Origin: Escherichia phage vB_EcoM_PTE-Eco05
DNA length: 64,000 nt
Sequence record: PQ306573.1
Direction: 5' to 3' (one strand)
Both the position numbers and the translations under genes were made by a program. The notes below the pieces were generated by a model. That model searched no databases. It was not told the DNA's origin and saw nothing but the letters and a program-made list of their open reading frames with translations. Below, piece by piece: positions 23,331 to 24,016 of this stretch (its first letter is position 1; every line of letters starts with the position of its first letter).

Positions 23331-23561
23331 ATGTCCACTGAAACTATTGAAAAACTGCAGTCTGAAATCGTAATTCTGAAATCTCGTATTCTTGATACCC
23401 AAGATGCCGCCGCCCGTATTTCTGACGATTCTAAACTTCTTCAGAATACCCTAGCTCAGATTGCTCAACTGGTCGGTATTACAAGTGAATCTGTTAAACT
23501 GGAAGACCTGGTAGAAGCAGTACGTGAACTTGTTAAAGCTGAAACCACAGAAGAAGAATAA
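23331..23561 (+). CDS. 57A: tail fiber assembly chaperone (gp57A-like)
   Basis: 76-aa coiled-coil ORF with acidic C-terminus, in the position of T4 57A. Confidence 0.85.
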
Positions 23562-24016
23562 TGAAATTTGAGGACTTTTCACAAGGCCTCTACGTCGCAG
23601 CTAAATTTTCGGAATTAACACTTGATGCGCTGGAAGACCTCCAGCGCAAATTAAGAATTCCTAATCCAGTACCGCGTGAAAAGCTTCATTCAACAATTTG
23701 TTATTCGCGTGTAAACATACCATATACTACATCTAGTGGTAGTTATTCTGTTGCCAAATCAGGACACCTTGAGGTATGGAAAACCGATGACGGCGCTGTA
23801 CTGGTTTTAGTTCTTGATTCCGAATATCTTAGATGTCGTCATCAGTACGCACGAGCTTTAGGTGCTACTCATGATTTCGACGACTACACTCCACATATAA
23901 CGTTATCATATAACGTTGGCCAACTATCATTCAGTGGTGATGTAGCTATTCCGGTTATTCTCGACCGTGAATACAAAGAACCCTTAAAACTAGATTGGGC
24001 CGAAGATCTAAAATAA
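23561..24016 (+). CDS. 57B: 2H phosphoesterase (gp57B-like; Acb1-type cyclic-oligonucleotide nuclease candidate)
   Basis: 151 aa with two H-x-[ST]-x motifs (HSTI, HITL) typical of the 2H/LigT fold; position of T4 57B. Confidence 0.85.

Follow-up and report, generated by a model that had tools for sequence, protein, structure and literature searches.

Acb1 in the RB69-like phage vB_EcoM_PTE-Eco05: a predicted full-length orthologue of the T4 anti-CBASS nuclease and its gene neighbourhood

Acb1 of Phage T4 and Related Enzymes

The anti-CBASS protein Acb1 was identified in phage T4 by activity-guided fractionation, which traced the cGAMP-degrading activity of infected cells to the product of gene 57B (Hobbs et al., 2022, Nature 605:522; PMC9117128); the preliminary description of the locus analyzed here had named T4 57B as the founding Acb1, and that study confirms the statement. 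The onset of this activity is at about 15 min of infection, T4 Δacb1 is sensitized to CBASS, and all nine of the further Acb1 homologues that were assayed cleaved both 3′3′-cGAMP and cA3 (PMC9117128). The residues described in the T4 protein are the tetrad H44/T46/H113/T115, the stacking residues Y12, W74, F107, and W147, and E141, which contacts adenine N6; in addition, a C-terminal lid formed by residues 145–152 closes over the ligand (PMC9117128). This lid is needed for activity (bioRxiv 10.1101/2025.08.21.671373), and the reaction passes through a 2′,3′-cyclic phosphate intermediate (PMC9117128).

Acb1 is among the most promiscuous of the viral 2H phosphodiesterases and also degrades 2′3′-c-di-AMP and cA3, and the substrate selectivity of these viral enzymes varies through the protein core (bioRxiv 10.1101/2025.08.21.671373). 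The action of Acb1 triggers Panoptes guard systems, from which phages escape by acb1 inactivation; Bas35–37, which are described as Tevenvirinae phages whose acb1 is intact, are Panoptes-sensitive (PMC13577387). Other cellular and viral 2H phosphoesterases, namely LigT/ThpR and the divergent viral 2H phosphodiesterases (Doherty et al., 2025), also possess two H-x-T/S-x motifs and employ, as does Acb1, a metal-independent chemistry via a 2′,3′-cyclic phosphate. Unlike these enzymes, Acb1 features a C-terminal lid and an aromatic cage that accommodates cyclic di- and trinucleotides, and the protein analyzed here showed no sequence match at E ≤ 0.01 to LigT/ThpR or the divergent viral enzymes.

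A survey of the INPHARED collection listed acb1 among the characteristic anti-defence genes of Tequatrovirus and Mosigvirus (bioRxiv 10.64898/2026.05.06.722914). For experimental work on the Acb1 of RB69 and other Mosigvirus phages, the literature that was covered yielded genome surveys only, with two papers naming both Acb1 and RB69 lying outside this coverage. Both the Acb1 family with its mechanism and the occurrence of acb1 in Mosigvirus genomes are already published, and the assignment described below is a routine annotation.

Identification of the acb1 Gene

The window, that is, the whole stretch of DNA that was analyzed, consists of 64,000 nucleotides of Escherichia phage vB_EcoM_PTE-Eco05 (PQ306573.1). 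A Megablast search placed it among the RB69-like phages of the genus Mosigvirus, with relatives that include FL31, PHB12, SF, phiE142, AV111, and RB69 at about 93–97% nucleotide identity. The gene under study and its immediate neighbours, all on the same strand, are as follows.

22592..23326, + strand: gene 1, dNMP kinase (Pfam PF21448, E = 8.8e-97)
23331..23561, + strand: gene 57A, tail-fibre chaperone (Pfam PF17594 GP57, E = 2.4e-24)
23561..24016, + strand: acb1 (gene 57B), 151 aa from ATG to TAA, 2H phosphoesterase, predicted anti-CBASS cyclic-oligonucleotide nuclease
24094..24405, + strand: first internal head protein gene, immediately following acb1 (PHROG 2667, E = 7.1e-39)
24455..24730, + strand: second internal head protein gene (PHROG 7673, E = 5.8e-48, residues 5–91)

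The acb1 open reading frame (ORF) is overlapped by a single opposite-strand ORF of 43 aa, which covers its first 22 bases (ORFs of at least 40 aa were considered). The preliminary description had assigned this ORF to the position of T4 57B, called its product 57B-like, and reported two H-x-[ST]-x motifs, and each of these points is borne out: the ORF follows gene 1 and 57A and precedes the two internal head protein genes, as in RB69 and T4; its product is 86% identical to T4 57B in the same gene order; and the protein, which contains five histidines in total, has exactly two such motifs, H43-S-T45-I and H112-I-T114-L. The motif pair on its own is only mildly unusual, however, and is poor stand-alone support for an Acb1 identity: the ORFs of the window itself give an expectation of 0.29 motifs per 151 aa, and at least two motifs occur in 2 of the 59 window ORFs of 100–200 aa. 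Homology, and not the motif pair, decisively carries the weight of the predicted identity.

A search against Pfam matched the protein to PF23474, "Anti-CBASS protein Acb1," with E = 6.5e-59 and a score of 198.2 bits (cutoff 27), and the alignment extends from residue 8 to residue 149 over profile positions 1–144 of 144, which corresponds to a full-length match; no other Pfam family was matched at E ≤ 0.01. A sequence search of the PDB returned as its best match the Acb1 of Erwinia phage FBB1 (7T26/7T27; E = 9.2e-59, residues 9–148, with a single one-residue gap), and the remaining matches were two more entries, both of them Acb1. NCBIfam models gave no match to this protein or to the Acb2 protein of the window described below. 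In a tblastn search, acb1 was found in 1470 phage records, in 1462 of them at a coverage of at least 80%. A single-sequence AlphaFold2 model of the protein (pLDDT 38, pTM 0.28) was uninformative on its fold; a 2H phosphoesterase fold is nevertheless predicted, in practice beyond doubt, by homology to the crystal structure 7T26, with which the protein shares 64% identity across 140 residues. Taken by homology, the 151-aa ORF very probably encodes a full-length orthologue of Acb1 (T4 gp57B), the anti-CBASS nuclease of T-even phages, and the word "candidate" in the preliminary description undersells the assignment.

Among known Acb1 proteins, an identical sequence (100% by tblastn) is encoded in the fragment KM389388 of phage CEV1, and gp57B of RB69 (NP_861847.1) is 99% identical, with one change, K66 in the window protein versus E in RB69. 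T4 Acb1 (gene 57B, NP_049750.1) is 86% identical at the amino acid level over the full length. It differs at 21 substituted positions, none of which lies at a described functional site, and at the N-terminus, where the window protein is one residue shorter (MKFEDF versus MMEFKDF in T4). The Acb1 of FBB1, whose structure was solved both in the apo form (7T26) and with 3′3′-cGAMP (7T27), is 64% identical and has an identical HxT/HxT tetrad.

Conservation of the Functional Residues

The residue numbers of T4 Acb1 were converted to those of the window protein by allowing for the one extra N-terminal residue in T4. The preliminary description had proposed an alignment to T4 57B as a check on the catalytic histidines, and in this alignment none is lost: the tetrad H44/T46/H113/T115 of T4 corresponds to H43/T45/H112/T114, identical at all four positions and in columns that align with both T4 and FBB1. 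The base-stacking aromatics Y12/W74/F107/W147 of T4 likewise correspond to the identical residues Y11/W73/F106/W146, and the adenine-N6 contact E141 to the identical E140. W73 and F106, which the window protein shares with T4, are conservatively replaced by the aromatics F and Y in FBB1 Acb1. The C-terminal lid, at approximately residues 144–151 of the window protein, is intact (LDWAEDLK, compared with LDWADDLK in T4), and 9 of the 10 C-terminal residues match T4. The catalytic, stacking, adenine-contact, and lid residues are thus shared between the two proteins.

Conservation was also examined in an alignment of 40 distinct orthologous sequences, with identities down to 27%, that were collected from IMG/VR loci and GenBank phages and include those of Acinetobacter, Aeromonas, Vibrio, Klebsiella, and Krischvirus phages. 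None of the 40 sequences departs from the tetrad or Y11, and 39 retain E140. At W73 and F106, the residue is retained or conservatively substituted in 39 or 40 sequences, and W146 is retained in 37 and replaced by Y in one. Pairwise Nei–Gojobori estimates of dN/dS between acb1 and its relatives range from 0.05 to 0.19, which points to strong purifying selection on acb1.

Predicted Mode of Action and Alternative Functions

The chemistry, substrate range, and anti-CBASS effect of the window protein are inferred from the experiments on T4 and FBB1 Acb1. By analogy with these proteins, Acb1 would be made during infection as a small 2H phosphoesterase and would capture cyclic di- and trinucleotides with one or more AMP units, for example 3′3′-cGAMP, cUMP-AMP, cA3, and cAAG. 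The ligand would lie within a U-shaped pocket and stack between the aromatics Y11, W73, F106, and W146, with E140 reading the adenine N6 and the C-terminal lid shutting over the ligand. The H43/T45/H112/T114 tetrad would then perform metal-independent acid–base catalysis with a cut 3′ of the adenosine, in which the adenosine 2′-OH would attack the 3′–5′ bond to give a 2′,3′-cyclic phosphate intermediate, subsequently hydrolyzed to a linear product with a 3′-phosphate. Removal of the signal before the CBASS effectors fire would allow the phage to complete its cycle. Breakdown of the guard signals of Panoptes, 2′3′-c-di-AMP and cA3, would likewise be expected of the protein.

A different function within the same fold family can be envisaged, in which the protein would be an RNA-repair or RNA-end 2H enzyme, a 2′–5′ RNA ligase or 2′,3′-cyclic phosphodiesterase of the LigT/ThpR type, acting for example in phage tRNA repair. 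PHROG 755, to which the window protein matches, is named "RNA ligase," a name that RefSeq phage records also use for 57B, and one phage record names an orthologue "putative RNA 2′,3′-cyclic phosphodiesterase"; moreover, the RNA-end enzymes share their fold family with Acb1, whose reaction has a 2′,3′-cyclic phosphate intermediate, and tRNA genes are located about 1.7 kb downstream of acb1. The name "RNA ligase," however, is older than the characterization of 2022 and reached these records by annotation transfer rather than by a functional test, and neither the LigT nor the 2_5_RNA_ligase family was matched in Pfam at E ≤ 0.01, the only matching family being that of Acb1. The matches in the PDB were likewise confined to Acb1 entries and included no solved LigT structure, and NCBIfam gave none. 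The features specific to cyclic nucleotides, namely W146 in the lid, E140, and the stacking aromatics, are conserved in the window protein, and the T4 protein to which it is 86% identical is itself the cGAMP-degrading activity of infected cells, the deletion of which sensitizes T4 to CBASS (PMC9117128). An RNA-end function is consequently scarcely credible, and the identity "RNA ligase" was rejected, given the lack of a match to a LigT profile or structure and the direct characterization of the close T4 orthologue.

It is also very unlikely that the protein is an Acb1 orthologue of shifted specificity, which would spare Panoptes guard molecules such as 2′3′-c-di-AMP or prefer signals other than those of T4 Acb1. 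Shifts of this kind have been described in viral 2H phosphodiesterases that diverge further (bioRxiv 10.1101/2025.08.21.671373), and 21 positions do differ between the window protein and T4 Acb1. The selective enzymes described so far, however, are highly divergent from Acb1, and sequence searches fail to detect some of them, whereas at 86% identity to T4 Acb1 every described ligand contact is unchanged; in addition, Panoptes acts on the Tevenvirinae phages Bas35–37, in which acb1 is described as intact (PMC13577387). A related proposal, that Mosigvirus Acb1 is functionally unlike T4 Acb1 in substrate range or Panoptes triggering through at least one of the 21 substitutions, is considered decidedly improbable.

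A Predicted Acb2 Sponge and the Annotation of 57B

The window contains a further gene that bears on CBASS.

39169..39435, + strand: Acb2/Vs.4, 88 aa, 100% identical to Vs.4 of RB69

The product matches the Pfam family PF24729 (Acb2/Tad1 hairpin) with E = 6.5e-18 and the PDB entry 7UQ2 (Vs.4) with E = 1.4e-30, and by homology it is the Acb2 cyclic-nucleotide sponge. Together with acb1, it would provide the phage with a T4-like two-armed anti-CBASS kit that consists of a nuclease and a sponge. An intact acb1 predicts resistance to CBASS, which for the two-armed kit should cover many CBASS systems, together with susceptibility to guards of the Panoptes type, properties that are relevant to host range and to the choice of therapeutic phages.

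Phage records in RefSeq/GenBank, and PHROGs as well, commonly list orthologues of 57B (e.g., RB69p157, NC_004928.1; PHROG 755) as "RNA ligase" or "hypothetical protein," despite the characterization of Acb1 in 2022. The value of the present assignment lies in a correct label for a gene that still bears one of these names in many records, and it has little value as a discovery.

Organization of the acb1 Locus

Upstream of acb1, genes 4, 2, 3, 1, and 57A are found, and of the 45 related loci, 44 likewise have gp1 ahead of acb1. The neighbourhood of 57B in RB69, where the gene is annotated as "RNA ligase," is the same as that in the window. In T4, the gene likewise lies between 57A and one or more internal-protein genes, but the downstream internal proteins differ from those of the window. 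The TAA stop codon of 57A and the ATG of acb1 share one base (TAATG at 23559–23563), which suggests that 57A and acb1 probably belong to one transcript, with translational coupling between them; in T4, the overlap is 4 nt.

While Acb1 is 86% identical between the window and T4 (locus L002), the adjoining gp1 and gp57A are each only 61% identical. This gap suggests either that Acb1 is unusually strongly constrained or that T-even genera have recently exchanged the acb1 segment horizontally.

A sequence that matches the late-promoter consensus of T4 is present inside gene 1.

22969..22976, + strand: TATAAATA, T4 late-promoter consensus, 592 nt upstream of the acb1 start

The offset of this octamer from acb1 is 592 nt in the window, 593 nt in RB69, and 591 nt in T4, despite the fact that gp1 is only 61% identical to that of T4, and the site is absent from many other T-even genera. 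It is possible that the site serves as a late promoter for 57A and acb1; because the octamer occurs 8 times in the window against 8.9 expected, which is at chance level, this reading is only a hint.

The preliminary description also drew attention to the adjacency of acb1 to the internal-protein locus and regarded it as support for an anti-defence role. The adjacency is real, and a similar argument was made for T4 by Hobbs et al., who took the proximity of acb1 to ipI as an anti-defence neighbourhood (PMC9117128). The first internal head protein has the N-terminus MKTYQEFIAE, which is of the capsid-targeting type. The second ORF as listed begins with MEPKMKTFNEFISE; since both the PHROG match and a capsid-targeting-type N-terminus begin at residue 5, its true start is probably M5 at position 24467, giving MKTFNEFISE. 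The first gene after 57B in RB69 is 99% identical to the first internal-protein gene of the window, whereas the second, named "ipI," has no match to the second gene of the window.

Among the 45 related loci, the first internal-protein gene of the window is present in 8 and the second in 12, and two Mosigvirus contigs whose Acb1 is 97–98% identical (L003 and L005) have no internal-protein gene at this site. As gp1 is found in 44 of these loci and the internal-protein genes in only 8 and 12, acb1 is located at the edge of a conserved block, adjoining a hypervariable internal-protein cassette.

Early-type promoter-like sites were identified before the two internal-protein genes and the ORF that follows them.

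24031–24059, + strand: early-type promoter-like site before the first internal head protein gene, TTTACA-17-TACTAT with TG
24406–24434, + strand: early-type promoter-like site before the second internal head protein gene
24734–24762, + strand: early-type promoter-like site before orf24779

The three sites resemble one another (T[TA]TACA, 17 nt, TA..[AG]T), all of them carry an extended −10 TG, and they look like T-even early promoters that would give each small gene a separate transcription start. Around acb1 as a whole, promoter-like sites (17 against 15 expected) and terminator-like sites (3 against 2.5 expected) are at background level; only these three sites and the TATAAATA of conserved position are worth mention, and then solely as hints.

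After the internal-protein genes, the window contains homologues of T4 tRNA.4, tRNA.3, and tRNA.2, followed by three tRNA genes; the overall arrangement is that of T4 and RB69.

25732–25884 and 26611–26686, + strand: tRNA genes Met-CAT, Asn-GTT, and Arg-TCT
26140–26625, + strand: 161-aa ORF between tRNA-Asn and tRNA-Arg

RB69 is annotated with only the Met and Arg tRNAs in this region, compared with the three found in the window.
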